Shown piece after piece: positions 35,201 through 58,166 of a DNA stretch of 64,000 nt; the first letter of the stretch is position 1, and each line of letters starts with the position of its first letter. Source of the stretch: an uncultured bacterium (GTDB lineage: Bacteria > Chloroflexota > UBA5177 > JANWHV01); NCBI GenBank assembly GCA_963827235.1, contig CAWHAE010000017.1, positions 32,001 to 96,000 of the forward strand, given 5' to 3'. Made by a program: the position numbers and the translations under genes. The notes beneath the pieces are model-generated. The model had not been told where the DNA came from, searched no databases, and was given only the letters and a program-made list of their open reading frames with translations.

Positions 35201-35264
35201 CATAGGCATATTATGTGGCTTGCAGCCCCCGCGGACCATATATTGAACAATGTGCATCAATATG

Positions 35265-41018: not shown

Positions 41019-41768
41019 TCAAGCCTGAGCGGCTGCGCGCGCCGACAGCGTTCTGGTGATTGCCTTGCCGATCGCCTGTTGCTCGCTCGTGGCCCTCTGC
41101 AGTGCCTGCGCCTGCGTGATCTTGCCCGCGGCCACCGCGGCATTAAGCTTGGTCTGGAGCGGCGCGAAGATAACCGCGGTGAGTTGCGCCTGTGTCGCCG
41201 AGGCATTGGTCTTCTGGCAGGCCGCCAGCACGCTGGTGCCACCCGCCTGCAGCAGGCTGGTCAGCGCGGTCGGCGTGGTGTTGCATGTGCCGGCAACGAG
41301 CTGCACCATCTGCTTCGTGCTCCACCCCATCGACCGCCCTCTGAAGCCCCCCATCGAGCCAGCTGCCGCCAGCTTGGGATGCGGCGTGACCACCAGGGTC
41401 TCCATCTTGCTCAACAGCGCGTTGTAGCGCGCCGCCTCCTGGCTGGCCGTGGTCCGTCCTGCCGTCACCGCGGCGTCCAGCCTGGCCTTCTGGGGCGCCA
41501 GTAGCGCGATGGCCAGGGCATTGGCATTCGCGTACTTGGACCCGGCGATCTGCCATAGGGTTTCGCCCTGATTCAAGTCCTGCTGCAACACCTGTGGTGT
41601 CACGCCCTCCACAGCGGCGATCTCAGCCAGCGTGGCGCCGGCGTGGCTGGTCCGCGGGTGGCCCGTACCTGCAGTTGTACCGGGCGCGGCGAATGCTACG
41701 GCTCCCGACCCGAGCACCAGGGCGGTACTCACGATGATGGGTGCGATGATTCGATGACTACGATTCAT
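41019..41768 (-). CDS. Secreted helical hypothetical protein with an internal duplication
   Basis: Signal peptide ending AFA; two repeats (LDAAVTAGRTTASQ / LNAAVAAGKITQAQ); lies upstream of the response regulator and kinase. Confidence 0.8.
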   Translation of the reverse strand: MNRSHRIIAPIIVSTALVLGSGAVAFAAPGTTAGTGHPRTSHAGATLAEIAAVEGVTPQVLQQDLNQGETLWQIAGSKYANANALAIALLAPQKARLDAAVTAGRTTASQEAARYNALLSKMETLVVTPHPKLAAAGSMGGFRGRSMGWSTKQMVQLVAGTCNTTPTALTSLLQAGGTSVLAACQKTNASATQAQLTAVIFAPLQTKLNAAVAAGKITQAQALQRATSEQQAIGKAITRTLSARAAAQA

Positions 41769-41835
41769 TTAGCGGTTTCCTTCTTGCTTGACACGATCCG
41801 TGCGCAGTCTCCCTGCGCTCCACCCTTACACTATG

Positions 41836-41861
41836 CGAAGATCGTGAAGAAGTTATGAAGA
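41836..41861 (-). promoter_or_regulatory. Tandem TCTTC(A) repeats, candidate OmpR-type binding site
   Basis: Reverse strand reads TCTTCATAACTTCTTCACGATCTTCG, ~70 bp upstream of the secreted-protein/two-component operon. Confidence 0.4.
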
Positions 41862-42283
41862 TGGTTTCGGGCCTCGCTGCCGGCAACGCAGTCGCTCTGA
41901 TTGCCACACAAACATCGGCCTGCGGCGGCTGCAGTTAAGAGCTGCATGCCAGCGCGCGCCAGGGCTGCAGGCCGGGCGGGAGGCGCCCACTCGCTCGGTG
42001 AAGTCAGCGCACGCCAGACGGTGCGGTGACAGCGGGTCAACACATCTTCCGTGACGTCCAGGGTCGGGCCGGGTTGCATTTATCCTGAGGTACTTAACGT
42101 CAAATGACCGAGGTTTGGCGACGTAGGCACCATATAGATAGAGGAACATTCAATAAAGGTTGACACTGGGCCGCAACAGGCCCATACTCGGAAGGAGCCC
42201 TCCCTCACGGCACCGTGTGCTCGCGGCCGCGCAGATTGAGCATATTTGCGCTCGTGGGACAACGGGAGAGCAGGAGGATGCGC

Positions 42284-42703
42284 ATGCCCACTTCGACATT
42301 GCGACGACTAGAGGACATCGGCGAGACGGTAGTGCATGCTGATGAGGATGTGCGCGGACGGAAGGTCCTTGACGACGGGGGTGACACCATCGGCACAGTG
42401 GACGGCTTGATGGTCGACGATGACCAGAACAGAGTGCGTTTCCTCCAGGTGGAGTGCGGCGGCTTCCTCGGCCTGGGCGCTACGCACGTGATGATACCCG
42501 TCGATGCGATTATCGGCATCACCCGCGATACGGTCACTATCGATCGCGGCGGACGGCACCTGCGCGGTGCCCCACGCTACCATCCGGCGCTCACGAAAGA
42601 GATGGATGAGCGCTACTGGCGCGGAGTCTACGGCTACTACGGCTTCGCGCCCTACTGGGGGGCGGGATACGTGTACCCGAGGTACCCGTACTGCAACCCA
42701 TAG
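42284..42703 (+). CDS. PRC-barrel domain protein
   Basis: DVRGRKVLD..G..IGTVDGLMVD...GGFLGLG...IP; Tyr-rich tail YYG..PYW; AGGAGG RBS. Confidence 0.9.
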   Translation: MPTSTLRRLEDIGETVVHADEDVRGRKVLDDGGDTIGTVDGLMVDDDQNRVRFLQVECGGFLGLGATHVMIPVDAIIGITRDTVTIDRGGRHLRGAPRYHPALTKEMDERYWRGVYGYYGFAPYWGAGYVYPRYPYCNP

Positions 42704-42839
42704 CGCCCGCCCGTGCCTCCACGCGCAACCATGGGGCCGGCGACTCCACGCCAGTTCACGCCTGCGCGTCCACTGGCGTCGTCTGGCTCGCGGCAGGGCT
42801 TGGCGTTTTGCGCCCACCGTGGGCCTTGACGAAAAAGGA

Positions 42840-43008
42840 TTCAACGGCCTTCCTGGGCATCGCGCCCGATGACCGGCGAAACGCGACCAATGAGGGTGTC
42901 ATCTCCGCGGCGACCGGGAGGGTCGCAGTCCGCGTGATCGGCACAGACGAAGAACGGATGATCGCCAGGGACGTGTGCCGCGTCCTCGGCATCAGCACAG
43001 GAGAGTAG
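42840..43008 (+). pseudogene. ackA: Acetate kinase C-terminal remnant
   Basis: FLGI..D..RN.....IS....[17 protein letters not shown] is the AckA C-terminal signature; it ends 4 bp before the phosphoketolase gene. Confidence 0.85.
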
Positions 43009-43012
43009 CAAC

Positions 43013-45421
43013 ATGGAGACGACGACGCTTACCCCGGCGATGCAGAACAGCGGCTCGAAGACGCACACCCTTTCCCCGGAGCTGCTCCACCAGATGGACG
43101 CCTACTGGCGTGCCGCCAACTATCTCTCGGTCGGCCAGATCTATCTCTACGACAATCCGCTGCTCAAGCAGCCGCTGCAGCTCTCGCACGTGAAGCCGCT
43201 GGTGGTCGGACACTGGGGCACCACACCGGGCCAGAACTTCATCTACGTGCACCTGAACCGGGTGATCAAGAAGTATGACCTGGACATGTTCTACATCGCC
43301 GGGCCCGGGCACGGCGGCCCGGCCCTGGTGGGAAACACGTACCTCGAAGGGACCTACTCCGAGGTTTACCCGAACATCAGCCAGGACGAAGCCGGGCTGA
43401 AGAAGCTGTTCTGGCAGTTCTCGTTTCCCGGCGGCGTCTCCAGCCATGTGGCGCCGACGACGCCGGGGTCGATTCACGAGGGCGGCGAGCTGGGATACTC
43501 GCTCAGCCACGCCTTCGGGGCCGCCTTCGACAATCCCGAGTTGATCGTCGCCTGCGTGATCGGCGACGGTGAGGCGGAAACGGGCCCCCTGGCCACCGCC
43601 TGGCAGTCCACCAAATTCCTCAACCCCGGGACCGACGGCGCCGTGCTGCCCATCCTGCACCTCAACGGCTACAAGATCAGCAATCCGACCGTGCTGGCCC
43701 GCGTCGAGCACGAGGAATTGGAACAGTTTCTCCGCGGCTGCGGCTGGGCACCCTACTTCGTGGAAGGCGATGAGCCGGACGCGATGCATGAGCTGATGGC
43801 CACCACGCTGGACACGGCCATCGAGGAGATTCGCCGCATCCAGGGTGCTGCGCGGGATACGCACGACGGCACGCGGCCGCGCTGGCCCATGATCGTGCTG
43901 CGCTCGCCCAAGGGCTGGACGGGACCGAAGGTCGTCGACGGTCTGCAGGTCGAAGGCACCTTCCGTTCGCACCAGGTGCCGCTTCTGGTGGATTCCGACC
44001 ACCCCGATCATGTGCAGCAGCTGGAAAGCTGGATGAAGAGCTACAAACCGGAAGAACTCTTCGATGCGGATGGCCGGCTGCTGCCGGAATTGGAATACCT
44101 CGCACCGAGAGGTGAGCGGCGCATGGGCGCCAATCCGCACGCCAACGGCGGTCTGCTGCTGCGCGACCTGCGTATGCCGGACTTCCACGTCCACGCGGTT
44201 CAGGTGCCCTCTCCGGGCGCTGTGGACGGCCAGGACACGCTCGTGCTGGGTGCGTTTTTGCGCGACGTGGCCAAGCTCAACCAGGATCAGCGCAACTTCC
44301 GCATCTTCGGTCCCGACGAAACGCTCTCCAATCTCCTGGGCGCGGTCTTTGAGGTCACCAGTCGCCAGTGGGACGCCCGGGAAGAACCGAACGACGAGTT
44401 CCTGGCTCCGGACGGACGCGTACTGGACTCCATGCTCAGCGAGCACCAGTGCGAGGGCTGGCTGGAAGGGTATCTGCTCACCGGACGACACGGGCTGTTC
44501 AACAGCTACGAGGCCTTTATTCGCATCGTCGACTCCATGTTCAGCCAGCACGCCAAGTGGCTGAAGGTCACCGCCAAGCTACCGTGGCGGCGGCCGATCG
44601 CCTCGCTGAACTATCTGCTTGCCTCCCACGTCTGGCAGCAGGATCACAACGGCTTCACGCACCAGGACCCGGGCTTCCTCGACCACGTCGTGAACAAGAA
44701 GGCCGATATCGTGCGCGTGTATCTGCCCCCCGATGCCAACTGCCTGCTCTCGGTCTTCGATCACTGCCTGCGCAGCCGGCACTACGTCAACGTGGTGGTA
44801 GCAGGCAAGCACGCCTTGCCGCAGTGGCTGTCCATCGACGCGGCGGTCGTGCATTGCACGGAAGGCATCGGCATCTGGCAATGGGCCAGCAACGACCAGG
44901 GAGCCGAGCCGGACGTGGTGATGGCCTGCTGCGGCGACACGCCCACGCTGGAGATTCTGGCCGCCGTGTCGATCCTGCGCACGCATCTGCCCGCGCTGAA
45001 AATCCGCGTGATCAACGTGGTCGACTTGATGAAGCTGCAGCCCAGCACGGAGCATCCGCACGGATTGAGCGACGCTGACTACGACTCCCTCTTCACCACA
45101 GACAAGCACATCATCTTCGGCTTCCATGGCTACCCCTGGCTGATCCACCGGCTGACCTATCGCCGGACCAACCGCAACTTGCATGTCCGCGGCTACATCG
45201 AAGAGGGCACGATCACCACGGCCTTCGACATGCGCGTGCAGAACGACCTGGACCGGTTCCACCTGGTGCAGGATGTGCTCGATCGCCTGCCGCACCTGGG
45301 CGCGAAGGGGGACTACCTGAAGCAGCAGATGCAGGACAAGCTGATCGAGCACCGGCAATACATCGACAAGCACGGCCAGGACATGCCGGAAATCCGCGAC
45401 TGGAAGTGGGGCAAGCGGTAA
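43013..45421 (+). CDS. xfp: Xylulose-5-P/fructose-6-P phosphoketolase
   Basis: [74 protein letters not shown]. Confidence 0.98.
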
Positions 45422-46470
45422 TGAACACGCATGAGCTTATGGCCACAGCGCAGGCACTCGTCGCCGGGGACAGGGGCCTGCTGGCAATAGATGAGAGTCT
45501 GCCAACCTGCAACAAGCGCTTTGCCGGGTTGGGCATCCCCCAGACCGAGGAGGCCCGGCGCGCCTATCGAGAGCTGCTGGTGACCACGCCCGGCCTGGGC
45601 GAATGCATCAGCGGCGTGATTCTGTTCGACGAGACAATTCGCCAGCAGACGAGAGACGGCACGCCCTTTCTCAGGGTGCTCACGGTGGCGGGCATGATTC
45701 CCGGGATCAAAGTGGACATTGGCGCGAAGGACCTGGCAGGGCATCCCGGAGAGAAAGTCACCGAAGGGCTGGACGGGCTGCGTGACCGCCTGGCCGAGTA
45801 CGCGGGGATGGGCGCTCGCTTTGCCAAGTGGCGCGCGGTGCTTGCCGTGGCAGATGGCCTGCCCAGCCGGGCATGTCTCGAAGCCAACGCGCACGCCCTG
45901 GCGCGCTATGCCGCGTTGTGCCAGGAAGCCGGACTGGTGCCCGTGGTCGAGCCCGAAGTGCTGATGGACGGCGAGCACACGGTTGAGCGATGCGGCGAGG
46001 TCACGGAGGAAGTGCTGCGTACCCTGTTCCACCAGCTGTACACGCAGGGCGTACTGCTGGAGGGCCTGATCCTGAAGCCCAACATGGTGCTTTCGGGACT
46101 GAGCTGTCCGAAGCAAGCGCCGGTGGACGAGGTGGCCGACGCCACGGTGCGGTGTCTCCTGCGAGCCGTCCCCGCAGCCGTGCCGGGCATTGCCTTCCTG
46201 TCGGGCGGCCAATCGCCTGATCTGGCTTCGGCTCGTCTGAATGCGATGAGCGTCAGATTCGGGTCCAGACTACCCTGGCCGTTGGCGTTCTCGTTTGGCC
46301 GTGCCATCCAGCAACCGGCCTTGGAGATATGGCACGGCGAGGACGCCAACGTCGCGGCGGCGCAGCAGGCGCTCTGGCATCGAGCGAGGTGCAACCAGAC
46401 CGCGCGTCGCGGCGAGTACACAGTGGAGATGGAACTGACAGCACCAGTACTCCAGACCGCGACGCCGTGA
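45421..46470 (+). CDS. Class I fructose-bisphosphate aldolase (eukaryotic/glycolytic type)
   Basis: GLLAIDES, PGIKVD.G, FAKWR, PVVEPEVL, LKPNMV (Schiff-base Lys), FLSGGQS, FSFGRA. Confidence 0.96.
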   Translation: MNTHELMATAQALVAGDRGLLAIDESLPTCNKRFAGLGIPQTEEARRAYRELLVTTPGLGECISGVILFDETIRQQTRDGTPFLRVLTVAGMIPGIKVDIGAKDLAGHPGEKVTEGLDGLRDRLAEYAGMGARFAKWRAVLAVADGLPSRACLEANAHALARYAALCQEAGLVPVVEPEVLMDGEHTVERCGEVTEEVLRTLFHQLYTQGVLLEGLILKPNMVLSGLSCPKQAPVDEVADATVRCLLRAVPAAVPGIAFLSGGQSPDLASARLNAMSVRFGSRLPWPLAFSFGRAIQQPALEIWHGEDANVAAAQQALWHRARCNQTARRGEYTVEMELTAPVLQTATP

Positions 46471-47459
46471 GCGACACAGCGCTGTATCCTCTGACTTTCG
46501 AACCGATCTACCAGTACCGGCTCTGGGGTGGCCGGCGCCTGGCCGACCTGCTCGGCGCGCCTCTGCCCGGCGACGGTCCCATTGGCGAAGCATGGCTGCT
46601 CAGCGACCGCGCCGACCACCAGAGCCGCGTTTCCAATGGACCGCTCCAAGGACTGACCATCGGGCAGCTGATCGAGCAGTACCCGGAGCCGCTGATGGGA
46701 ACGCTGGCCGGGCGCTTCCGACGCTTCCCCTTGCTGCTCAAGTTCCTCGACGTGCATGAAACACTCTCGGTCCAGGTGCATCCCTCGGATGCGCAGACGG
46801 CGTTGTTGCCTGATGGTGAGAGCGGCAAGACCGAGGCATGGGTCGTGCTGCAAGCGGGGACGGAAAGCCGGGTCTATGCGGGCCTGAGGCCGGGCACGAC
46901 CGCGGACAGCCTGCGGCGGGCACTGGCCAATGGGACGGTGGCCGACCAACTCGCTTGCTTCACGCCGCAACCCGGCGACGGGGTGTTCATCCCGGCTGGG
47001 ACGGTGCACGCGCTGGGTGGCGACGTACTGGTGTTCGAGATTCAAGAGAACAGCGACGTCACCTTTCGTCTGTATGACTGGGACCACGTCGACGCCAAGA
47101 CGGGCCGGCCGCGAGCACTGCAGGTCGAACAGGCGCTTGCCTGCATTGACTTTGCCGGTAGCTCGGCCGGGCTGGTGGCACCCGTGATGGAAGCGACGAT
47201 GCCGGTAGGGCGCGAGCGACTCGTTCGGTGCCCACAGTTCCGGCTGTGGCGACTGCGCGGACAGTCGCCGTTTACCGTCGGTGCCGTCGGAGTGCCGCGC
47301 GTGCTCGTGTGCATCGAGGGCGAGGGGCAGGTCGAACACAGTGGCACCACGTGTGCCGTGGGAAGAGGCGATGTCGTGCTGTTGCCGGCGGTGCTCGGAG
47401 TCTGTGCGTTTCGGCCCCACGGGGACGCAAACGTGTTGGAAATGGCGCTGCCCAAGTAG
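46467..47459 (+). CDS. manA: Class I mannose-6-phosphate isomerase
   Basis: WGG, GEAW, FPLLLKFLD, LSVQVHP, GKTEAW, PAGTVHA, EIQENSDVTFRLYDW. Confidence 0.94.
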   Translation: MSDTALYPLTFEPIYQYRLWGGRRLADLLGAPLPGDGPIGEAWLLSDRADHQSRVSNGPLQGLTIGQLIEQYPEPLMGTLAGRFRRFPLLLKFLDVHETLSVQVHPSDAQTALLPDGESGKTEAWVVLQAGTESRVYAGLRPGTTADSLRRALANGTVADQLACFTPQPGDGVFIPAGTVHALGGDVLVFEIQENSDVTFRLYDWDHVDAKTGRPRALQVEQALACIDFAGSSAGLVAPVMEATMPVGRERLVRCPQFRLWRLRGQSPFTVGAVGVPRVLVCIEGEGQVEHSGTTCAVGRGDVVLLPAVLGVCAFRPHGDANVLEMALPK

Positions 47460-47539
47460 GGTGTGACCGGCCTCGGCGGGACAGCCGGCAGAGCCTTGAA
47501 CGCTGCGAGCGATCGCAGAAATCGAGAGGTGGACGCAGC

Positions 47540-48298
47540 GTGAAGAAGCTCATCGTCTTTGATCTGGACGGTACGCTTGCCGAGAGCAAGTCGGCACTTG
47601 ACGCCGAGATGTCGACACTGCTGCACGACCTGCTCGGCATCGTCCAGGTGGCCGTGATCTCCGGCGGCGATTGGCCCCAATTTGAAAAGCAGGTGCTCGT
47701 CCATCTGCCCCATGACGAACGCCTGGCACATCTCTCCCTTCTACCGACCTGCGGCACGAAGTTCTACCGGTACGCGGGGGAGTGGAAGCAGATCTATGCG
47801 GAGAACTTCAGCGCGCAGGAAAAGCAGCGCATTGTCGGCGCCCTCGACAAGGCCGTCGACGCAGCCGGTCTGAAGGTGGACAAGGTCTGGGGCGAGGTTA
47901 TTGAAGACCGGGGCAGCCAGATCACCTTCTCAGCCCTGGGTCAGCAGGCTCCCCTGGAAGAAAAGGACGCATGGGACCCCGAGTACGCCAAGCGAAAGAA
48001 GATCAAGGCGATCCTGGACACGCTCATTCCCGACTTCTCGGTTCGCATGGGCGGCGCGACCTCCATTGATGTGACCAAACCAGGCATCGACAAGGCCTAC
48101 GGCGTGCGAAAGCTGCGAGACATCCTGGGCATGTCGTTGAAGGAGATGATCTTCATCGGCGATGCCCTGTTCCCTGGCGGGAACGACTATCCGGCGGAAG
48201 AAGCGGGGGTCGTCTCCATCCCTGTGAAAGGTCCCGATGAAACGAAGCGAGTGATCGAAGCGATTATCGCCTGCCTGGATGGCGAGCAGCGCCCGTGA
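47540..48298 (+). CDS. HAD-IIB hydrolase, eukaryotic-type phosphomannomutase-like
   Basis: FDLDGTL, ISGG, IEDRGSQITFS, GG.TSIDV...GIDK, FIGDALFPGGNDY (PMM-like). Confidence 0.9.
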   Translation: MKKLIVFDLDGTLAESKSALDAEMSTLLHDLLGIVQVAVISGGDWPQFEKQVLVHLPHDERLAHLSLLPTCGTKFYRYAGEWKQIYAENFSAQEKQRIVGALDKAVDAAGLKVDKVWGEVIEDRGSQITFSALGQQAPLEEKDAWDPEYAKRKKIKAILDTLIPDFSVRMGGATSIDVTKPGIDKAYGVRKLRDILGMSLKEMIFIGDALFPGGNDYPAEEAGVVSIPVKGPDETKRVIEAIIACLDGEQRP

Positions 48299-48312
48299 GC
48301 AGGTGAGGAGAG

Positions 48313-49430
48313 GTGATGAGCGGATTCACGTTGCGGCGCCTGGGACTGGTGATGGAGCCGGAGCCGGGCAATCCCCAGGAGGTCGAGGGTGTCCTGAATC
48401 CGGCGGCCGTTCGCGGACCAGATGGTAACCTGTACCTGTTTCCCCGCCTCGTGGCGCGGGGCAACTATTCGCGCATCGGCATCGCCCGCGTGCTCTTCAA
48501 CCAGTCCGGCGACCCGGCAGGCGTGGAGCGGCTCGGCATTGCCCTGGAGCCGGAAGCGGACTACGAGCGTCGGCCCGATGGCGGCGGTGGCTGCGAGGAC
48601 CCACGCATCACGTTCGTTGAACCGCTCCAGCGCTACGTGATGACCTACGCGGCATTCTCGCCCATCGGCCCACGCATAGCGCTGGCCATCTCGGAGGACT
48701 TGTTCCACTGGACGCGACTGGGACTGGCAACCTTTGCTGCCTATCGCGGCATCGATTTCGTGCATGTGGACAACAAGGATGCCAGCCTCTTCCCGGTGGC
48801 CATCGCCAATCACGCCGGCAAACTGCAGCTTGCCATGCTCCATCGACCGCTGTTTCCCGGCACGCGTCCCGAGGAAACCGCCCGCCATGCGGCCTCCCGG
48901 TTGGTGGATCTGGATCGAGAAAGCATCTGGATATCCTACTGCCCGATGGCGTTACCGGACCGCCCATCGCCGCACCTCGGCCTGTTCAATTCGCATCACC
49001 GGCTCGCCGCCCCGGTCGCACCTTGGGAGCGGCTCAAAATTGGCTGCGGCACACCGCCCATCCTCACCCGGCATGGCTGGCTGATTCTGTACCACGGCGT
49101 GAGCGCACTGGGGGAGCCGGGCAGCGACGGACATGCACTCTGCTACTCGGCCGGGGTGATGGTGCTGGCGACGGAGCATCCGCGTCTGATCCGCTATCGC
49201 TCGCCGGAGCCGGTACTGCGGCCGGAGTTGCCGAGAGAACGCGGCGGCACCATCGCCAACGTCGTGTTCCCGACCGGCATCGACCGGCGCGACGATCTCG
49301 GCACGCCGGACCGCTTCGACGTCTACTACGGGATGGCCGACGACCGCATCGGCGTGGCTTGCCTGGACGTGCCGGAGTTCTTGCCGCCCGGAGGTGTCCC
49401 CGACCCGCCGGAACCAGAGAGGCAAGGTGC
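48313..49430 (+). CDS. GH130 beta-mannoside phosphorylase/hydrolase (stop codon not seen; the ORF reads into the ATPase)
   Basis: GVLNPAA, CEDPRIT, DNKDA.LFP, LHRP, WLILYHGV, NVVFPTG, YYGMAD. End position is approximate. Confidence 0.88.
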
Positions 49431-49551
49431 TCGATGCCGGGCGTGCAACAGCATGCATGAAACGTGTTCGCTCGCGCCTCGTCCACCGATGGTCCAGGAT
49501 CCCGCTGGGCCGAGACTGGCGGGAGGAAACAAGAACAGGAGGATAGCCACC

Positions 49552-52334
49552 ATGACACCACAGACAGATGCGGCGAAAGCTCCCGACGCGAAGGCTCCCG
49601 ATGCCAAGACTGCCGATGCGAAGGACGGATCGACGCTCGATGCGAAGGCCGCCGATACGAAGGCGCCCGAAGCCAAACCCGCTGTGAAGGCACCCGATGC
49701 GCGGGGCGATCCGGCGGCCCAATCGAAGCCGGATGCCAAGGACGATCTCAAGTCCCTGCCCATGGCGGAGGTGGAGAAACGACTGCAGTCGTCGCCGGAC
49801 GGCCTCACGCAAGCCGAGGCGCAGAAACGGCTGACCCAGTATGGACCAAACGAGATCGAAGAAAAGAAAGTCAATCCGCTCCTGAAGTTCCTCGGCTATT
49901 TCTGGGGTCCCATTCCCTGGATGATCGAAGCGGCGGTGGTGCTCTCGGGCATCGTGCAGCACTGGCCGGACTTCTTCATCATCCTTGTGTTGCTGCTCGC
50001 CAACGCCGTGGTCGGATTCTGGGAGGAACGCCAGGCGGGCAGCGCCATCGCCGCCTTGAAGGCCCAGCTGGCGATCAAGGCCCGCGTGAAACGCGATGGA
50101 AAGTGGATCACCCCGGCGGCACGGGAGCTCGTACCGGGCGATGTCATCCGCATGCGCCTGGGCGACGTCGTGCCGGCGGATGCGCGCCTGCTGGCAGGCG
50201 ACCCGGTGCAGGTGGATCAGTCCGCGCTCACCGGAGAGTCGCTGCCCGTCACGGTCTCATCCGGCGGGGCCGTGTATTCCGGGCTCGATCATCCGTCAGG
50301 GGGAAATCGGCGCCCTGGTCTATGGCACGGGTGCGAACACCTACTTCGGCAAGACCGCGCGGCTGGTGCAGGAGGCGCACACCGTCAGCCACTTTCAACG
50401 CGCGGTGCTGAAGATCGGCAATTACCTGATCATCCTCGCGGTGAGTCCTGGTGGCGGTGATTATCGCCATCTCGCTCCTGCGTGGCGACGCGGTGCTGAC
50501 CACGCTGCAATTCGCCCTGGTGCTGACCGTGGCGGCGATTCCCGTGGCCATGCCGACGGTCTTGTCGGTGACGATGGCAGTCGGTGCGCGCTTGCTGGCC
50601 AAGAAGAAGGCGATAGTCAGCAAATTGGTGGCCATCGAGGAGTTGGCGGGCGTGGACGTGCTGTGCACGGACAAGACCGGCACCCTGACCCAGAACAAGC
50701 TGACGCTGGGCGACCCGTTCAGCGTGAACGATATCCCCGCCGCGCAGGTGATCCTCGCCGGCGCGCTGGCCTCGCGCGCGGACAACGACGACACCATCGA
50801 TCTGGCCGTGCTGGGTGGCGTGAAAGACGACCAGGCCTTGAAAGGGTATCAGGTCGTCCATTTCCAGCCCTTCGACGCGGTGCATAAACGCACGGAGGCC
50901 AGCGTCAAAGGGGCGGACGGCAAGGCGTTCAAGGTGACGAAGGGCGCGCCGCAGGTGATCCTGGCCCTGTCGGCCAATGCCGGGCAGGTGCAGCCTGCCG
51001 TCAAGCAGGCGGTCGACGAGTTCGCGGCGCGCGGCTTTCGTGCCCTGGGCGTGGCGCGGGCCGAAGGAGACGGCGACTGGCAGTTTCTTGGCGTGTTGCC
51101 ACTGTTCGATCCGCCGCGGGACGATGCCAAGTCCACCATCGCGACCGCCCGTCAGATGGGTGTGACGGTCAAGATGGTGACCGGCGATGCCCTGGCCATC
51201 GCCCAGGAGACCGCCAAGAAACTGGGCATGGGCACGAACATTCTCGACGCCGGCAGCCTGGGCGACGTCAAGAAGCAGGAGACCACGGCGGTGGCCGAGT
51301 CCATCGAGCAGGCCGACGGGTTCGCCCAGGTCTTCCCCGAACACAAGTATCACATCGTGGATGTCCTGCAGAAACAGGGCCACATCGTCGGCATGACGGG
51401 CGATGGCGTGAACGACGCCCCTGCGCTCAAGAAAGCCGACTGCGGTATCGCCGTGTCGGGCGCCACGGACGCGGCGCGTGCGGCTGCGGCCATCGTGCTG
51501 ACGACGCCCGGCCTGGCGGTGATCATCGACGCGATCAAGGAGAGCCGCAAGATCTTCCAGCGCATGAACAGCTACGCGATCTATCGCATCGCCGAGACGC
51601 TGCGTGTGCTGTTGTTCATGACCCTGGCGATCCTGGTCTTCAACTTTTTCCCCCTGACGGCCGTGATGATCGTGATGCTGGCCTTGCTCAACGACGGCGC
51701 CATCCTGTCCATTGCCTATGACAACGTGCACTACAAGGATCAGCCCGAGGCCTGGAACATGCGCCTGGTGCTGGGCATCGCCACGGTGCTGGGCGTCGTC
51801 GGCCCCATCGCCGCGTTTGGCCTGTTCTATCTCGGCGATCGCGTCTTTCACCTCGCCCATCCGCAGCTGCAGACGATGATGTATCTGCTGCTTTCCGTAG
51901 CCGGACATCTGACGATTTTCCTCACCCGCACCCGTGGCCCGTTCTGGTCCATCCGTCCCGCGCGGATTCTGTTGGTTGCCGTATGCGGCACGCAAACGCT
52001 GGCGACGCTGATGGCGGTGTATGGGCTGGGGATCATGACACCCCTCGGCTGGGAATGGGCCTTGGTCGTGTGGGGCTATGCGCTGGCATGGTTCCTGGTG
52101 AGCGACCGGGTGAAACTGCTCGCGTATCGTTTCTTTGATCCGGCCAAGATCAAGACACCGATCGAGCGCGACACCGCGGACTCGCCACGACACCGTCCGA
52201 TTTGGGGCCGCGGATCGCCAAGGGTGCCTATGCCCTGTATGAGCAGCACGGCCGCCACGACGGCCACGCAACGGAGGACTGGCTGCAGGCGGAGCAGAAG
52301 GTCACGAAAGCCGACGCCACAAAAGAGGCCGTAG
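49552..52334 (+). pseudogene. Plasma-membrane proton-efflux P-type ATPase (type IIIA) with a DUF2934-like tail; three single-base frameshifts (~50281, ~50444, ~52187)
   Basis: Own RBS AGGAGG at 49537. YGPNEI, FWGPIPWMIE, DQSALTGESLP, IPVAMP, DKTGT, KGAP, DPPR, TGDGVNDAPALK, LLNDG (proton-binding Asp). Tail RIAKGAYALYEQHG...DWLQAE lies in another frame. Confidence 0.93.
49571..49705 (+). repeat. Degenerate (D)AKAP pentapeptide low-complexity repeats at the ATPase N-terminus
   Basis: AKAPDAKAPDAKTADAKDG...DAKAADTKAPEAKPAVKAPDAR. Confidence 0.8.
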
Positions 52335-52368
52335 GGCGCCGCACGGCGGCAGGTCAGAAGAACGGACG

Positions 52369-52656
52369 ATGAAAATCAAATCAAAGAACTTCTGTGTAAA
52401 GCCCGGAGAAGCGGTCAAGCTCGAAGAGCGGCCGACCGGCGTGCAGCCCCTGTACGAGTCGAAAAAGCAGTATCAGACAGTCCTGGAAGAACACGCCGTG
52501 GAGTTGAGCGCGCTGCAACGCCTGCACTACGCGTCCAGCCGCTACGCGCTGCTGCTGATCTTGGAGGGGATGGACGCGGCCGGCAAGGACGGCGCCATCC
52601 GGCACGTCATGTCCGGAGTCAATCCACAAGACTGCCAGGTGTTGAGTTTCAAACAG
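52369..52656 (+). pseudogene. ppk2: Polyphosphate kinase 2 (class III-like) N-terminal fragment
   Basis: LLLILEGMDAAGKDGAIRHVMSGVNPQ.CQV.SFKQ, then similarity stops abruptly. Confidence 0.9.
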
Positions 52657-52935
52657 CTGAGGAGCTGGAGCATGATGCAGTTTCGCAGTGTTCAGCAGTT
52701 GCGGCTCCGGTGGGAGGAGGAGACCGGCGTGGATCCGTGTGCGCCGGGGCCGGTCTGCCTGCGGGGGCCGCGCGCAACTGTTGGGCATCCTGCGCGCTAC
52801 GCGTCCACTCCGCCTTGGGCGAGCTACGGCGTGGGCATACGGCAGGGTGCCGCGTCGTGCACGTCGAAGCCGCCGATACCGTCATTCCGTACATGTGACT
52901 TCATGGAGTAGTCCGAACAGCTGGAGGAAGTACCA

Positions 52936-53775
52936 GTGAGTGGTATGCGCGTTCGCCTCGGTCATATCTTCGACCCTGCCAGTGGCAGGGCGCTGATTGT
53001 TCCGCTCGATCATGGGCTGGTCCTAGGCGCGCTGGCGGGCCTGGAGAACCCACGGTCCTTGCTCGAAAGCTTGGAGCCCCTCGGAGTCGATGCTACCCTG
53101 CTTGGTCCGGGACTGGCGCAGCTACATGGCGATATCTTTGCCCGTCGATCGGCGCCGGCCCGCATACTGACCGTGGACATGCCGCTCCTCTCCAACGTGC
53201 CGGGTGAGTCCTCGGAGGTGCGTGCCTACGCCATGGTCGCTACGGTAGCCGACGCGCTACGTCTGGGAGTCGACGGTGTGAAGGCGATGCTGGTCTGGGG
53301 GATTGAGCCCGCGGTCGAGATGGAGAGTCTCAGGCTGATCGCTGCGCTGGCACGGGAGTGCGAGCTCAGTGGCATGCCCTTAATGATCGAACCAGTACTC
53401 TGGGGTAAGGCTATCGGCGACGCCAGACATGCCGACCCGCATCTCATCGCCAATGCCTGCCGGATCGCCGTGGAGCTCGGCGCCCACATCGTCAAGGCGC
53501 CCTACGTCGCAGACATCGACGCTCTCGCAATGCTGGTACGCAATACCCCGGTGCCCATCGTGATTCTCGGCGGCCCCCGCCTGGATGATGAACGGGAGGT
53601 TCTGCAGATCGCGGAGCGCGCTACTGCAGCCGGGGTGAACGGCATCGTATTCGGTCGCAATGTATTCCAGCGGCCGAATGCCGCACAGATGATCAAGGCG
53701 CTTCGCGCGATTATCCACGAGAACAAGTCCGCCGGTGACGCTGCCGGGATGCTGGGGTTATCGCCAGATGCATAG
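52936..53775 (+). CDS. DhnA/LsrF-family class I aldolase
   Basis: IVPLDHG, ALRLG.D, RIAVELGAHIVKAPY, ILGG, GIVFGRNVFQ. Confidence 0.9.
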   Translation: MSGMRVRLGHIFDPASGRALIVPLDHGLVLGALAGLENPRSLLESLEPLGVDATLLGPGLAQLHGDIFARRSAPARILTVDMPLLSNVPGESSEVRAYAMVATVADALRLGVDGVKAMLVWGIEPAVEMESLRLIAALARECELSGMPLMIEPVLWGKAIGDARHADPHLIANACRIAVELGAHIVKAPYVADIDALAMLVRNTPVPIVILGGPRLDDEREVLQIAERATAAGVNGIVFGRNVFQRPNAAQMIKALRAIIHENKSAGDAAGMLGLSPDA

Positions 53776-53868
53776 CAGGCCCACCGCAAGGCGGCCTAGG
53801 AAATTCGTCGCCATATTGGCCGAGAGCCGGCAGGGCGAACATGCAGTACTCCGAAGAGAGGCGAACAT

Positions 53869-54516
53869 ATGGACATTGACCTTGGCATGACCGTTTGCAC
53901 GAGCGACGGCCAGGATGTTGGCTCGATTGACCGATTCATCCTGGACCTGCATTCCAACCAGGTCAAGTCGGCAGTGATCCGCAAGGGCGTCTTACTGCCG
54001 CACGACATCGTGGTGCCGTGCGCCATGATGGAGAACATCTCCGGTGGCGCCGTACGCCTGTCCGCTACTGCCGCCGAGGTACACGGGTTGCCTGAATTCC
54101 TGCCTGGGGCGTACAGCGTGCCGCCTGCGGACTATCCTCTGCCGGCAGGCTACCCGGCCGACAGCGTGTACGTGCCCTTCGGCTTCAGCTTGGGCGGTCT
54201 TGGCGCGACACCAGTTAGTCCGACGCCCGACACTGCTGAAGCGCGGCGAGTACGCGCTGCATGGATCCGGCAGGACCTCGACAACGCGGTGGTTCAGGAA
54301 GGCAGCAGGGTCTTTAGCCGTGATGGGGATCACATCGGCGACGTCCGTCAACTGAGCTTCGATCAGCAAACCGGCGCGTTGACGCACATCGTCGTGCGCC
54401 GGGGTTTCTTCTTTGCCAAGGATACGGAGCTGCCGGCATCGATGATTGCCAGCGTGGGTGACGGCACCGTCACGCTCTCGGTGGGCTCCGCCGAGGCCAG
54501 CGGTGTCATGCCGTAG
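53869..54516 (+). CDS. Tandem PRC-barrel domain protein
   Basis: Two repeats: GMTVCTSDGQDVGSIDRFILD / GSRVFSRDGDHIGDVRQLSFD...HIVVRRGFF. Confidence 0.88.
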   Translation: MDIDLGMTVCTSDGQDVGSIDRFILDLHSNQVKSAVIRKGVLLPHDIVVPCAMMENISGGAVRLSATAAEVHGLPEFLPGAYSVPPADYPLPAGYPADSVYVPFGFSLGGLGATPVSPTPDTAEARRVRAAWIRQDLDNAVVQEGSRVFSRDGDHIGDVRQLSFDQQTGALTHIVVRRGFFFAKDTELPASMIASVGDGTVTLSVGSAEASGVMP

Positions 54517-54724
54517 CGTGCAGTCCGTCATCCGTCGCTTTCGCTGTGCTTGGAGATGGGTTGCTGGAACTCCAGGCCCTCTGGTGACGCAAGGCCATCC
54601 GTCGGCGAAGGGTCCAACTTTCACCCTTGCCGCCCGCCGTGGCACGCCTCGTCGAGCGTGCCGAGACCTTGACTGACCATCTGGATGACTGGTCAGGCTC
54701 TGTGCATGCGTGGGACACTGTCAG

Positions 54725-55115
54725 CTAGACAGTTGACTGATCGTCGTCGCGTAGTGCCTGCCGTAGCGCATCCTGGTGGCGGGTGATCGGATCGTCGTCC
54801 CGCTCCTCGACAGTCTCCAGGATCTTGTTTTCCAGCGCTCGGAGCGAGCGAAGCACGGTGATCATCAGCTCGTCCTGTGCTTCGAGGTGATGCAAGATGG
54901 CGCGGTTCTCTTCCTCTGAACGTTGGCCCACTACATAGGCGTTATGCGCGGCCAGCCGATCCTTCTCCGCTTGGCGGTTAGCGCTCATGAGCAGCACCGG
55001 AGCGGCATAGGCGGCCTGAAAGGACAGCACCAGGTTCAGTAGGATGAACGGGTACGGGTCGAAGGGCCTGAAGACGACTTCCGCGACGTTGACCGCGATC
55101 CAGGCCGCGAGCACG
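54725..55115 (-). pseudogene. DUF1003 membrane protein C-terminal fragment
   Basis: FDPYPFILLNLVLSFQAAYAAPVLLMSANRQAEKDR; the N-terminus is replaced by unrelated DNA. Confidence 0.88.
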
Positions 55116-55139
55116 CAACTGCGTGGGCGATCCGGCAGG

Positions 55140-56120
55140 CCACAGCCAATGGGAACGTCCTTGCCACGGTGACCGTGAACGTGGTGACGCTGTCGCCAAC
55201 CTTCGCACTCAGCGCGCCAAGCCTGATCCCTGGTCAAACGGTCACCGTCAAGGGCAAGGGCTATGCGGCTGGCGAGCAGGTCGTGCTGGCCTTGAACGGC
55301 GCCGCGCTGGCTACCTCCCCCTCCACGGTGCTTGCCGGCTCGACCAACGCCTTTAGCGCCAAGTTCGTGGTACCGGTGGCCATCAACAATGGCCTGAACA
55401 CGGTCACTGCCACCGGTGCCTCCAGCCACGCCGGCTACGCGCTCACCGTGCCAGGCAAGCTGCCCGGCGCCACCACCAGCTACTACTTCCCCAACGGCGA
55501 CACCACCAGTGGTAACCGCACGGTGATCTCCGTGCTGAACACGAGCAGTGCCGCCGCATCGCTGAAGCTCACCTTCTTGTACACTGGGGCACCGGAGCGT
55601 TCCGTACAGCAGTCGCTCCCTGCTCGGCGACAGGTGCTCATCGACCTGAATCTGGTCGCAGGTACCAGTCGGCACCTGGCTACCATCGTGCAGTCCAGTC
55701 AACGGATCGTGGCAGGCAGCACGATCTACTATGCAAAGGGGGACAGTGCGTCACCGATTGGCGCGTCGGCGCCGGCTACCAGCTGGTATCTGGCGGAATG
55801 CTATACCGGTGGTAGCTTCCATGAGTTCCTGGAAATCATGAACCCCAACGCGGCCAACGCCAACGTGGATGTGCGCTTTCTGCCCTTGAACGGCCGGCCG
55901 CCGCAGGAACACCGCTTCTCCCTGGCGCCACGCTCAACGATCTCCCTCGATACCAGCACCTACATGCCCATAGCCTCCTTCAATACCATTGTGACGTCCG
56001 ACAAGGGCGTGGTGGTGGAGCGCTCCATGCGTTTCGGCACCAACGGCCGTGGCGCTACGGCCGTCATGGGCGTGGCCGTAGCCCCAACCGTGTGGCTCTT
56101 CGCCCAGGGTGAGAGCGCGT
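55140..56120 (+). pseudogene. Internal fragment of a large secreted Ig-like/DUF5719-like protein
   Basis: Ig-like PGQTVTVKGKGY..GE.V and repeats YYFPNG.T / WYLAECYTGGSFHEFLEIMNPN / WLFAQG, VVERSMRF. No signal peptide or RBS; truncated at both ends. Confidence 0.65.
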
Positions 56121-56306
56121 CGAGGTTGGGGCATTCGGCGCTGACAAGACTATGGTCGCCAACGCCGAAGCAGGCCGCTTCTCCATAGGCCCTGAAGAGC
56201 GACTGGCCATTACCATCACCTCCGATCTCGACAGGTTGGTCGCCATAAACCAGCACGCGGTAACTGCTGTCGAGGTGGTGTGTGCCACCTTCCTCATCGC
56301 GCCGTG

Positions 56307-57017
56307 TCACTCCGGCGCAGGTACCGGTTCTATGCAGTACGAGAGGGTTTTGAGGCCTGCCAGCGTGTGGAGTTCGTCGAGAATCGGCAGCAGCTCGTGG
56401 TGCGCGCTGGGGCGAACGTGGAGCGTGAGCGTCGTCTCTTGCCGCTGCAAGTCGCTGGCGACCTGCAGCTGCAGCACGTCGGCCCCGCTGCGGCGCAAAC
56501 ACTCCTGGATGGCAAGCGGTTGCTCCGCTTGGTATGACAACAATGCCTCGATCAACAGGGGCTGCTGGGCGGGAAGCTTATCGACAGACAGGAAGCGGCG
56601 TTCGAACAGCTTGAGACCGCGCAAAATGCCTAAAGCCAGACCTGTAGTCACGATGGCGAGGGCATAGAGACCGCAACCGCAGGCCAAGCCGATGCCGGCG
56701 ACCAGCCAGACACTCGCGGCAGTCGTCAAGCCATGGACGGTGTCCTTATGGAGGATGATGGCGCCGGCGCCCAGAAACCCGATGCCGCTGACGACCTGGG
56801 CCGCGATACGTGAGGGGTCGAGCACGATGGTGTGCGTCGCGTTCACTACTGTGGTGAAGCCAAAGGAGGAGATCAGCATCATCAACGCGGCAGCCATGCA
56901 GACGAGCGTATGGGTGCGCATGCCGGCCGTTCGATACCGCTCCTCCCGCTCCAGGCCGATTCCGAGCCCCAGAACGGCGGCCAGCAGCAGGCGGAGCACC
57001 TCTTCTTGCGTCGTCAT
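56307..57017 (-). CDS. MgtC/SapB family protein
   Basis: IGLERE...AGMRTH.LV, DPSRIAAQVVSGIGFLGAG.I, GLTTAASVW, ACT-like C-terminus. Confidence 0.95.
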   Translation of the reverse strand: MTTQEEVLRLLLAAVLGLGIGLEREERYRTAGMRTHTLVCMAAALMMLISSFGFTTVVNATHTIVLDPSRIAAQVVSGIGFLGAGAIILHKDTVHGLTTAASVWLVAGIGLACGCGLYALAIVTTGLALGILRGLKLFERRFLSVDKLPAQQPLLIEALLSYQAEQPLAIQECLRRSGADVLQLQVASDLQRQETTLTLHVRPSAHHELLPILDELHTLAGLKTLSYCIEPVPAPE

Positions 57018-57239
57018 GCGTGCGTCGTTCCCGATGCCTTAAATGTTCAGCTTGGTCGCGGCGCCACAGCTGTACGGATCCAGGATAGCGCGCACCGGGC
57101 AGGCGCGCCGCGGCCGGCGTTCTTGCCCTTCCCGCATCGATGCTCCCCTGAGCAGCAGCATGGCGCTAGCGTCGGATCCGTCTGCTGATGCGGGCACGCC
57201 CGCCCAAGGTGCACATTATGGTTATGATCCTCATATATA

Positions 57240-57384
57240 TTCCCTGCGCGGTGATCACCAGGCTGTGGGCAACGCTCGTCGCATTGACCTCGTTGACCGC
57301 AACGCTCCAGTTCTGGGGCACGGTAATGGTCATCTTGCCGTCTGACGCGCCGTTAAAGGCCCCGCTGCTCGTCGTGATCGTCAT
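57240..57384 (-). pseudogene. Sulfocyanin-like cupredoxin fragment
   Basis: FNGASDGKMTITVPQNWSVAVNEVNATSVAHSLVI resembles sulfocyanin FNG...G.M.I.VP.GW.V....N....H. The C-terminal Cys/His/Met ligands are absent. Confidence 0.6.
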
Positions 57385-57677
57385 TGCGACTTCCCGTCTG
57401 GCCGCGACTGCTTGTGTGACTGCAGACGTACCCAGGGCGTCTGGCAGCACGGCAACATGTACGGGTCGGTCGCGGATGAGACCGCAGAACTGGATGAGCG
57501 ACACAGGGACTGCCTCGCTGACACGCAGACGGTGGCCTGCAGTAGCCTGACGTGCGACCGCGTCCCACACGGCGTTCTGTAAACCCCCCGCCAAGCGATA
57601 TCAAGAGCTTATTCATAGAATACGACAGTATTATAGCCCTATCTCTGTGCCATATATAGATGGTATTTCGTCTATAT

Positions 57678-57706
57678 TTGACAATAGGTGCCAAGACGCC
57701 GATACT
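57678..57706 (+). promoter_or_regulatory. Candidate sigma70 promoter TTGACA-N17-GATACT
   Basis: Perfect -35, 17-bp spacer and AT-rich upstream region; precedes the BON and SPFH genes. Confidence 0.6.
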
Positions 57707-57842
57707 TTGAAGGAATCCCCCAGCCCGACATTTCAGAGGCGGACTGGCACTGCGGTGACATTGCAGGCGCACCGTACAGCGCCACTCCATCAGTGCCGTT
57801 CGCCGGCGATGCTCCGGGCAACCGTAAGTGAGGAAGCAGACG

Positions 57843-58166
57843 ATGGCCATCAGCAACAGCAGCAGCGAGTGGGAAGCGGACGAATCGGTAAGCCAGGTCA
57901 TCGAGCGCGAGATCCAGACCAGGATGCACCAGCACACTCCCCCGATCGAGGTGTCTGCCCAGGGCTCGACTGTGACCCTCACGGGTCATGTAGCCAATCA
58001 GGCCACCAAAGAGGCGCTCATCGACTTGGCTCGCTCCACGCCCGGCGTCATGAACGTCACCGATAACCTGGAATTCGGCGGCGGCCATCCCTTCCTGGAT
58101 TGGATCTTCCCTGGAAGCGATCCGAATCGAGATCTTGGCGACGTGGATAGAGGCGAACGACGCTGA
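57843..58166 (+). CDS. BON domain protein
   Basis: IEVSAQGSTVTLTGHV......A...ARSTPGVMNVTDNL. Confidence 0.88.
   Translation: MAISNSSSEWEADESVSQVIEREIQTRMHQHTPPIEVSAQGSTVTLTGHVANQATKEALIDLARSTPGVMNVTDNLEFGGGHPFLDWIFPGSDPNRDLGDVDRGERR

Follow-up and report, generated by a model that had tools for sequence, protein, structure and literature searches.

The stretch of DNA analysed here (64,000 nucleotides of contig CAWHAE010000017.1, "the window" in what follows, about 64% G+C throughout) carries on its + strand, between positions 42787 and 52656, eight genes that were identified with Pfam, NCBIfam and tblastn and are listed by window position in Table 1. In order, they are the 3' end of an acetate kinase gene (ackA), a phosphoketolase gene (xfp), genes for a class I fructose-bisphosphate aldolase (FBA), a class I mannose-6-phosphate isomerase (manA), a predicted hexose-phosphate mutase of haloacid dehalogenase (HAD) subfamily IIB and a glycoside hydrolase family 130 (GH130) protein, a pseudogene for an H+-ATPase of the plasma-membrane type (the pump), and the 5' end of a polyphosphate kinase 2 gene (ppk2). 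We consider this region to be almost certainly a decayed copy of a conserved mobile cassette. A sequence-only reading of the same DNA had proposed a self-contained module in which a mannoside yields ATP and the ATP drives a proton pump. Its description of eight co-directional genes truncated at both ends agrees with ours, down to the end at 52656, which is the exact end of ppk2 homology, and the overlaps and short gaps that it reported are there as well: the stop codon of xfp overlaps the FBA start (TAATG), that of FBA the GTG start of manA (GTGA) and that of the pump the ATG of ppk2, with gaps of 80 nt before the HAD gene and 17 nt before GH130.

Table 1. Positions and supporting matches of the cassette genes and of other features of the window
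Feature	Position	Strand	Match or remark
ackA, 3' remnant	42787-43005	+	tblastn with AckA of locus L028 (403 aa): residues 334-402, 58% identity, E 6e-17
xfp, phosphoketolase, 802 aa, apparently intact	43013-45421	+	Pfam XFP_N, XFP, XFP_C; NF003619, 1429 bits (cut-off 962)
Class I FBA, 349 aa, apparently intact	45421-46470	+	Pfam Glycolytic, E 1.6e-128; NF033379, 510 bits (cut-off 250)
manA, class I mannose-6-phosphate isomerase, 330 aa, intact	46467-47459	+	Pfam PMI_typeI_cat; TIGR00218, 119.6 bits (cut-off 116.2)
HAD-IIB, predicted hexose-phosphate mutase (PgmH / eukaryotic phosphomannomutase type), 252 aa, intact	47540-48298	+	Pfam PMM, E 2e-12, profile positions 5-219 of 221
GH130, predicted cytoplasmic beta-1,2-mannoside phosphorylase	48316-49422 (body, 369 codons)	+	Pfam PF04041 Glyco_hydro_130, E 7.9e-32
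Type IIIA (plasma-membrane type) H+-ATPase pseudogene	~49552-52372 (start approximate)	+	TIGR01647
Low-complexity N-terminus of the pump	49584-49660		Ala/Lys/Asp/Pro-rich; imperfect 15-nt direct repeats
DUF2934 tail of the pump	52199-52330 (frame 2)	
ppk2, 5' remnant including Walker A	52369-52656	+	Pfam PPK2 positions 3-67 of 229; NF042973 positions 1-94 of 285
DeoC/LacD-family (DhnA-type) aldolase	52936-53775	+	starts 280 nt past the ppk2 remnant
Run of stress-type genes	53869-63340		PRC-barrel/DUF2171, MgtC, small cupredoxin-like protein, BON, SPFH/band-7, histidine kinase followed by KaiC-like ATPase
ORF	55169-56188		
Glycan cluster	13383-30650		GH95, epimerase, two xylose-isomerase-like TIM-barrel genes, GH30, LacI regulator, GH3, sugar ABC transporter (binding protein and two permeases), one full GH39 after an ORF with a weak partial GH39 match
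Lone C-terminal X-Pro dipeptidyl-peptidase fragment	34641-35210	-	PepX_C positions 71-216 of 217
ORF with histidine-kinase HATPase_c domain alone	9292-10005	-	
Tyrosine integrase gene	6939-8039	+	

The intact cassette of a related locus, L028, served as the yardstick for damage. The window Xfp is 90% identical to that of L028, and ManA, which is barely over the TIGR00218 cut-off, is 77% identical to its L028 counterpart across residues 8-337. The FBA translation contains the motif LILKPNMV, which we take to hold the Schiff-base lysine. For the pump, the C-terminal piece (627 aa) by itself scores 713.8 bits against TIGR01647 (cut-off 615.5), the model is covered end to end, and the translation has the DKTGT phosphorylation site (CTDKTGTLT). 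Its low-complexity N-terminus is encoded by short repeats, and its C-terminus carries a DUF2934 tail, as does the pump of L028 (13600-13920). DUF2934 is also fused to Hsp20 in related loci (e.g. L032 5089-5547); its presence in both proteins hints at a regulatory or targeting tag shared within these islands.

Damage in the window copy

The ackA, pump and ppk2 genes are dead in the window, and GH130 has a read-through tail. The last ~69 codons and the stop codon of ackA are kept and the 5' ~333 codons are deleted; the remnant covers positions 347-392 of 392 in Pfam Acetate_kinase at 18 bits, under the cut-off of 22, and the domain is incomplete. At the other end, the first ~96-100 codons of ppk2 are kept (residues 11-111 of the 304 of the L028 PPK2) and the 3' ~190 are gone; the ORF runs on without homology to 52911, and the kinase domain (Walker A, Walker B, lid) is incomplete. 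The reading frame of the pump is interrupted, and a tblastn comparison with L028 recovers it as four pieces in three frames: TIGR01647 positions 1-160 and 220-755 lie in two frames, and a 68-aa middle piece, equivalent to positions 70-127 of the E1-E2_ATPase profile, lies in the third. DNA alignment places single-base (+1) insertions near 50284 and 50444, neither within a homopolymer run, and a third break at ~52160-52199 leaves the DUF2934 tail out of frame. The pump gene is unbroken in 29 of 34 testable relatives; the other five look broken.

GH130 homologues stop at PEPER* after 369 residues, where the window has a Gln codon. Lacking this stop, the gene runs into the pump gene without a change of frame, as an ORF of 715 aa whose end is at 50460. 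The GH130 ORF is 366-396 aa long in 82 of 82 homologous loci, the spacer between it and the pump, considered as a possible site of a conserved RNA element, varies in length from 88 to 716 nt in 26 loci, and no natural GH130-pump fusion was found in the 82. Likewise, the best 120 of 895 matches to the read-through product (proteins of 392-1250 aa) include no fusion of GH130 with a P-type ATPase.

Frame breaks and a lost stop codon could be errors of sequencing or assembly, in which case pump and GH130 would be functional, and the broken look of five of the 34 testable pump copies, in loci from metagenome-assembled genomes (MAGs), may reflect such errors. We find this explanation improbable here. 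The pump gene has three independent breaks in addition to the stop loss, both of its insertions fall outside homopolymer runs, base-calling errors cannot cause the large truncations of the two flanking genes, and there are further lone gene fragments in the window.

Five genes, xfp, FBA, manA, HAD and the GH130 body, can be aligned with their relatives over the whole length. In columns that do not otherwise vary, there are three singleton changes in xfp (rank 6 of 24), six in FBA (tied for most of 25), one in HAD and none in manA or GH130, so that, FBA excepted, these genes have no clear excess of singleton changes that would indicate relaxed constraint. Since the five look intact and are free of a clear excess, decay appears to be partial or recent. 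The decaying acquired cassette of the sequence-only reading was thus borne out at its truncated ends, and also in the pump breaks and the GH130 stop loss that it had missed; its middle is still whole. The chain from mannoside to pump, which the same reading had placed in the window, is not there in working form: with ackA, pump and ppk2 broken it is unable to run end to end. At most, the steps from mannoside through fructose-6-phosphate (F6P) to acetyl-phosphate could still work here, with the acetyl-phosphate then used by enzymes encoded elsewhere.

Gene order, neighbours and mobility in related loci

To place the window in context, one genome per species was scanned. Of the 591 confirmed GH130 relatives that this gave, the 80 best were retained, together with flanks of up to 10 kb, so the sample leans to close relatives; the window proteins were compared with these 80 loci by tblastn. 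GH130 relatives as such number in the thousands, and the closest 120 are 79-92% identical to the window protein, save one at 69%, and nearly all 369 aa long.

Among loci with enough flank, the HAD gene is directly upstream of GH130 in 72 of 78 and manA is upstream in 58 of 74. FBA and xfp lie at most 9 kb upstream in 25/67 and 20/60, respectively, the pump is directly downstream in 22/63, and ppk2 is downstream in 14/60. Counted anywhere in the locus and on either strand, the figures out of 80 are 75 for HAD, 62 for manA, 34 for the pump, 29 for FBA, 28 for xfp, 27 for ppk2 and 20 for ackA. Smaller groupings recur within these: of 35 pump copies, 18 have ppk2 immediately behind them, and in 13 of 29 cases ackA stands immediately before xfp. 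Six genes (xfp-FBA-manA-HAD-GH130-pump) keep the window order in nine of the 80 loci, and all eight do so in four (L028, L039, L045 and L049). The near-constant core is therefore manA-HAD-GH130, which an ackA-xfp-FBA module and a pump-ppk2 module join in about one-third of loci. This arrangement is far beyond chance; by our own estimate, a single-copy gene such as xfp should lie 10 kb or less from any one chosen gene in well below 1% of genomes that measure a few Mb, and xfp is found within that distance in the 28 loci counted above. Gene order is thus conserved across phyla, as the sequence-only reading implied it should be, and "self-contained" is the wrong word for a cassette of which three genes are near-constant, the rest come and go, and even the GH130 module can be replaced (see below).

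Going by their record titles, the 80 loci come from at least 10 phyla, and GH130 identity is 70-82% across at least 10 phylum labels; the cassette is common to soil and peat bacteria of many phyla. The window has two Planctomycetia sequences next to it in a GH130 tree with 83 rows, and its group is nested in a clade of 37 rows (SH-aLRT 98) with short branches and 12 of the phylum labels. A search of a plasmid collection returned eight records with a pump at least 60% identical to that of the window. On plasmid 2 of Nitrobacter hamburgensis X14 (L001 7469-17695) the order is ackA-glk-GH65/beta-phosphoglucomutase (betaPGM) fusion-HAD-GH130-xfp. A plasmid of Rhodococcus sp. AQ5-07 (L085 8756-18629) carries xfp (81% identity)-class I FBA (70%)-pump (81%)-betaPGM-GH65, with genes for universal stress proteins (USPs) and NhaA nearby. 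On pSBC2-4 of Caballeronia sp. SBC2, a phosphate acetyltransferase fusion is followed by ackA, pump (78%) and PPK2 (68%), with integrases adjacent, and on pACRY01 of Acidiphilium cryptum JF-5 the pump (74%) lies among insertion sequence elements. Taken together, these comparisons suggest that the cassette moves between phyla, partly on plasmids. In the window itself we found no GC step at the cassette, no tRNA genes that could serve as integration sites, and just short, chance-level pairs of flanking direct or inverted repeats.

A GH65/betaPGM module replaces or adjoins GH130/HAD(/manA) beside xfp, FBA and pump, its two parts being fused in Nitrobacter, and the GH130 and GH65 phosphorylase modules thus appear to be interchangeable. 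This exchange within the same string is the strongest argument for a functional link between sugar phosphorylase, phosphoketolase and pump, and it bears directly on the possibility that stress and maintenance genes were gathered independently in a mobile island, with no metabolic coupling of the sugar module, phosphoketolase, pump and PPK2. The wider association is indeed facultative, as the counts for upstream xfp and downstream pump show, and the modules do separate on plasmids (e.g. Acidiphilium has just the pump, together with DUF3141, and in Bradyrhizobium GH130 accompanies a different P-type ATPase). We nevertheless judge independent gathering to be unlikely, since these genes are met together repeatedly, with starts and stops that overlap in the window and with an order kept in several phyla, and are met once more with a different phosphorylase module in one co-directional string in Rhodococcus, which is hard to explain without a functional link.

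To characterise the surroundings, the ORFs of the 80 loci were clustered and 31 of the 40 most widespread families were examined, seven of them cassette families recognised by their match to the window and 24 by Pfam; 29 could be named. The neighbours include a PRC-barrel protein (20 loci), a YflT-type general stress protein (18), an alpha-glucan phosphorylase-like protein (14), a ribosome hibernation factor (13), glucose-6-phosphate dehydrogenase (11), transaldolase (9), a USP (8), parts of a second F-type ATPase operon (5-8) and Hsp20 with a DUF2934 domain (7), together with SpoIIAA-like, SPFH/band-7, Crp-family and Na+/H+ exchanger genes. Such company speaks for a setting of stress and dormancy. 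Sugar transporters and secreted glycanases are missing from the 29 named families. The F-type ATPase genes (beta, epsilon, b and alpha) can lie just downstream of the cassette, as in L077 (5887-7915), L036 (14603-15496) and L062 (10402-12036).

In the window, PRC-barrel genes stand on both sides of the cassette, and the run of stress-type genes downstream of it indicates that here, too, the cassette lies within a wider stress region. The DeoC-type aldolase that follows ppk2, both PRC-barrel genes and the ORF at 55169-56188 have no counterparts listed in the 80 loci or in the Nitrobacter and Bradyrhizobium plasmid loci (E 1e-10, at least 50% coverage), which sets them outside the conserved cassette. 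The glycan-utilisation cluster of the window is outside it as well.

Predicted enzymes and pathway

The GH130 protein looks like a cytoplasmic beta-1,2-mannoside phosphorylase and not a hydrolase, phosphorolysis being also what the sequence-only reading had assumed; substrate and linkage are predictions from alignments and a structural model. Its closest solved sequence is Teth514_1788, a beta-1,2-oligomannan phosphorylase (phmmer E 6.6e-23), and the clade is ~30% identical to any solved enzyme. An AlphaFold (AF2) model (pLDDT 87.4) again has its best fold match among PDB entries in Teth514_1788, with a target-normalised TM score of 0.83-0.85 as compared to 0.65-0.68 for the hydrolases 5A7V and 3QC2, and the 24 best entries listed (ranks 1-35) are all GH130 family structures. 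The NPAA and CEDPR motifs that BT3780 and Teth514_1788 have in common find their counterparts in residues N28 and E94-D95, which are at least 90% conserved among the aligned sequences; the BT3780 residues concerned, Asn74 and Asp142, belong to the -1 subsite and include the catalytic Asp (PMC4599007). By our own count on the alignment (chain offset +4), K154 stands opposite BT3780 Lys199, the determinant of beta-1,2 specificity (PMC4599007), and the Arg and Glu of the +1 subsite are present as R44 and E94.

An alignment of 31 sequences with 35-92% identity shows no variation at R44, K154, R177 or H260. H260 belongs to a YH motif, which phosphorylases have too; the hydrolase-type structures BT3780, 4ONZ and 3TAW read YN at this place. 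K241 faces Arg in Teth514_1788 but Leu in BT3780, and G243 faces Glu268 of BT3780. R177 is part of an HR motif, its pairing with BT3780 Glu227 lying outside the printed alignment. In the hydrolases, Glu or other residues take the place of the basic residues that bind phosphate; we regard R177, K241 and H260 as candidates for such residues, as read from alignments and not from coordinates. The N-terminus has no signal peptide, and in GH130 the phosphorylases are found in the cytoplasm, the hydrolases being secreted (PMC4599007). In two database proteins GH130 is combined with part of an acetate kinase that begins at profile position 116 (P0350, 625 aa) or with a PLD-like domain (P0353, 682 aa); these may be real fusions, deletions or gene-calling artefacts.

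The prediction that the HAD protein is a hexose-phosphate mutase, rather than a phosphatase, is well supported by its relatives. It has the DxDxT nucleophile motif (FDLDGT, residues 7-12), and its best solved relative is the alpha-phosphoglucomutase 4BND (E 7.6e-46, residues 1-245), presumably the Lactococcus lactis enzyme. Eukaryotic phosphomannomutases (PMMs) come after it, and the next 15 distinct sequences are PMMs throughout, with no phosphatase among them; an NCBIfam cut-off was reached just at the level of the subfamily, HAD-IIB. The context favours PMM activity: the gene lies between manA and GH130, and in a natural fusion (P0288, 641 aa, 13 member sequences on four contigs) a 72%-identical HAD domain is joined to a full GH130.

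Based on these predictions, we propose with moderate confidence, as the best reading of the family, a mechanism that would lead from a mannoside through F6P and acetyl-phosphate to ATP, and that would join to this a proton pump and the use of polyphosphate. In the first module, the cytoplasmic GH130 would use phosphate to split a beta-linked (probably 1,2) mannoside and release mannose-1-phosphate (Man1P), which the HAD mutase would convert to mannose-6-phosphate and ManA to F6P, no kinase or ATP being needed. That the route from GH130 through PMM and phosphomannose isomerase (PMI) to F6P saves one ATP per hexose is established (PMC4264767). In the second module, phosphoketolase would cut F6P or xylulose-5-phosphate (Xu5P) to give acetyl-phosphate, from which AckA would make ATP. 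The class I FBA, for which the sequence-only reading had no role, may help to recycle triose and erythrose phosphates in the style of the bifid shunt or of non-oxidative glycolysis, an idea that fits the transaldolase gene found near the cassette in nine loci. With such recycling, acetyl-phosphate, and from it ATP, could be made with little or no redox imbalance and little net NADH. In the third module, the one-proton P-type pump would spend ATP on membrane potential and cytoplasmic pH when respiration fails, and PPK2 would use polyphosphate to turn ADP back into ATP. A P-type pump that moves a single proton for each ATP can operate on a steeper gradient than an F-type ATPase in reverse, which would suit acid surroundings. 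The sequences themselves establish what the genes are, their conserved order, their presence in many phyla and the damage to the window copy; we infer the substrate, the direction of flux, the coupling to the pump and induction by anoxia or acid.

This logic fits the cassette family on comparative evidence; in the window it is broken at both ATP-yielding ends and in the pump. Several observations weigh against it. About one-third of loci add xfp, pump or ppk2 to the GH130 trio, so that their association is facultative and the modules may act independently. The GH130 protein scores far under NCBIfam equivalog cut-offs (107 bits against 450). The nearest solved relative of the HAD protein is a phosphoglucomutase and an alpha-glucan phosphorylase-like gene is present in 14 loci, so the mutase may serve glucose-1-phosphate as much as Man1P. 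We know of no mannoside reserve in these bacteria. Regulatory signals are lacking in the sequences scanned: the window has one unrelated FNR/Anr-type box (TTGAT-N4-ATCAA with at most one mismatch, at 27901) and none before cassette genes, an Rfam scan of 41500-55000 with E up to 1 gave no match, and promoter and terminator scans stayed within shuffle expectation (3 against 1.9 and 8 against 6.5). Across 85 loci (1.41 Mb), 47 FNR/Anr-type boxes were found, none consistently upstream of cassette genes. Decay covers only part of the cassette, as described above. Finally, phylum labels change 19 times on the GH130 tree, against a minimum of 11 and a shuffled mean of 28.6, a value as low being reached in 0 of 200 shuffles. 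Labels more clustered than shuffled ones indicate that inheritance is partly vertical, mostly within Acidobacteriota (five changes for 52 rows; Verrucomicrobiota, with five for five rows, and Planctomycetota, with four for five, are scattered), and MAG phylum labels can be wrong for mobile DNA. The stress function proposed in the sequence-only reading thus stands as far as stress and dormancy neighbours and plasmids go; its link to acid or anoxia rests on the neighbours and on labels in record titles, and there is no FNR-type box to go with it.

The trio might be an ordinary route of nutrition that uses beta-mannosides taken up from outside (fragments of plant mannan or of fungal beta-1,2-mannan), comparable to GH130 loci in gut bacteria. 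This would agree with the role of GH130 with PMM and PMI given in PMC4264767, and the window does contain, at 13-31 kb, numerous glycoside hydrolases together with a sugar ABC transporter. This hydrolase cluster is, however, more than 12 kb away, past unrelated genes on the other strand, and the named neighbour families include neither a sugar transporter nor a secreted glycanase. We therefore regard the trio as very unlikely to be nutritional. With a cytoplasmic phosphorylase and no linked transporter, the mannoside may instead be made by the cell.

The trio could also run the opposite way, building a beta-mannoside from F6P under stress, as a protective solute or reserve, with the co-location of xfp and pump reflecting shared regulation within a stress island. 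The reactions of manA, HAD and GH130 are all reversible, and the neighbours are stress-protection genes (Hsp20, YflT, USP, hibernation factor). The beta-1,2 GH130 phosphorylases make oligomannan from Man1P and have weak GDP-mannose transferase activity (PMC4264767, PMC12814180). No dedicated glycosyltransferase is conserved nearby among the named neighbour families of the 80 loci. We hold synthesis as the main direction to be rather unlikely, because the adjacency of xfp and ackA makes more sense for breakdown, as do the parallel GH65/betaPGM modules (which in Nitrobacter have a glucokinase gene beside them). The two directions do not rule each other out, and a reversible store would do both.

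Since the three reactions are reversible and GH130 enzymes can synthesise oligomannan, the trio could both fill and drain a store, like the mannogen cycle of Leishmania. As a tentative extension of the mannoside-to-ATP mechanism, which we put forward as no more than possible, the cassette may be a portable kit for surviving anoxia or acid. A reversible, ATP-free cytoplasmic store of beta-1,2-mannan would be phosphorolysed when respiration stops and phosphate rises, would feed the redox-neutral route through phosphoketolase, FBA and AckA, and, together with PPK2, would supply the ATP for the one-proton pump; such kits would be exchanged on plasmids, with either GH130 or GH65 modules.

Known systems and other features of the window

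The GH130-PMM-PMI route of Bacteroides and Thermoanaerobacter has the same three steps and the same ATP-saving phosphorolysis (PMC4264767). As compared to that route, the PMM in the cassette is of the HAD type, there is no linked transporter or secreted glycanase, and the trio is joined to phosphoketolase, proton pump and PPK2 amid stress genes. The resemblance to the bifid shunt and non-oxidative glycolysis lies in the second module. In those pathways phosphoketolase and acetate kinase lead from F6P or Xu5P through acetyl-phosphate to ATP; here, too, Xfp stands beside AckA, and FBA could serve the carbon rearrangement. The cassette differs from them in that it does not support fermentative growth of a fermenter: it is a mobile accessory element of soil lineages that are mostly aerobic, it is supplied by a phosphorylase module, and its partner is a pump that consumes ATP.

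In its concept, and to some extent in its genes, the cassette resembles the low-oxygen-activated (lxa) locus of Burkholderia cenocepacia, which is induced by low oxygen and needed for the anoxic persistence of this aerobe, and which its authors compare with the mycobacterial DosR regulon (PMC3721108). By its description there, lxa is an accessory island with USPs, alpha-crystallin, acetate kinase, phosphate acetyltransferase and a cation-transporting P-type ATPase, BCAM0318. The gene content overlaps only in part. The terms phosphoketolase, aldolase, mannose and polyphosphate are absent from the text of PMC3721108. The Caballeronia plasmid locus, a run of phosphate acetyltransferase, ackA, pump and PPK2, looks intermediate between the cassette and lxa.

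For the putative store, the nearest parallel is the mannogen of Leishmania, an intracellular beta-1,2-mannan handled by reversible phosphorylase-type enzymes with a GH130-like active site, which serves as a reserve and "metabolic rheostat" in quiescence (PMC10913872). The Leishmania enzymes belong to GT108 and match the GH130 model weakly (TM 0.60-0.64, 13-14% identity). To our knowledge, no bacterial mannogen-like store has been shown. The pump resembles the plasma-membrane H+-ATPases of plants and fungi in its end-to-end TIGR01647 match and its DKTGT site. Plant and fungal H+-ATPases carry their own type of regulatory domain, whereas the cassette pump is bacterial and often plasmid-borne, has a DUF2934 tail and, in the window, is broken in three places.

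Each part therefore belongs to a known family, and we found no published description of the combination as a whole in the full-text literature, a search whose scope left out most subscription journals; this is in line with the remark of the sequence-only reading that no characterised operon has such a logic. Single genes are mentioned in PMC6515984, PMC3404531 and PMC8808168, the cassette in none of them. GH130 and phosphoketolase are mentioned together in a Lactobacillus genome report and a biogas metatranscriptome study, neither of which describes the cassette in the portions available.

If the proposed mechanism is right, it would offer a testable explanation of how nominally aerobic bacteria, among them Acidobacteriota, Planctomycetota and Verrucomicrobiota of peat and soil, survive anoxic, acidic or starved spells, through substrate-level ATP made without an electron sink and spent directly on proton export, and it would imply an unrecognised carbohydrate reserve in bacteria. 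A eukaryote-type proton pump that spreads between phyla in a metabolic cassette would also be a rarity. For the window itself the meaning is more modest, as this copy is half dead. The cultured carriers Nitrobacter hamburgensis X14, Rhodococcus sp. AQ5-07, Caballeronia sp. SBC2, Acidiphilium cryptum JF-5 and Singulisphaera acidiphila bring the cassette within reach of the bench.

Two ORFs elsewhere in the window were noted in passing. For the lone PepX_C fragment no catalytic domain was found in any upstream minus-strand frame up to 36713, and the ORF therefore looks like a gene remnant. The ORF with an HATPase_c domain has no HisKA or sensor domain in the adjacent upstream ORFs of its strand and may be another remnant; the tyrosine integrase gene lies near it.

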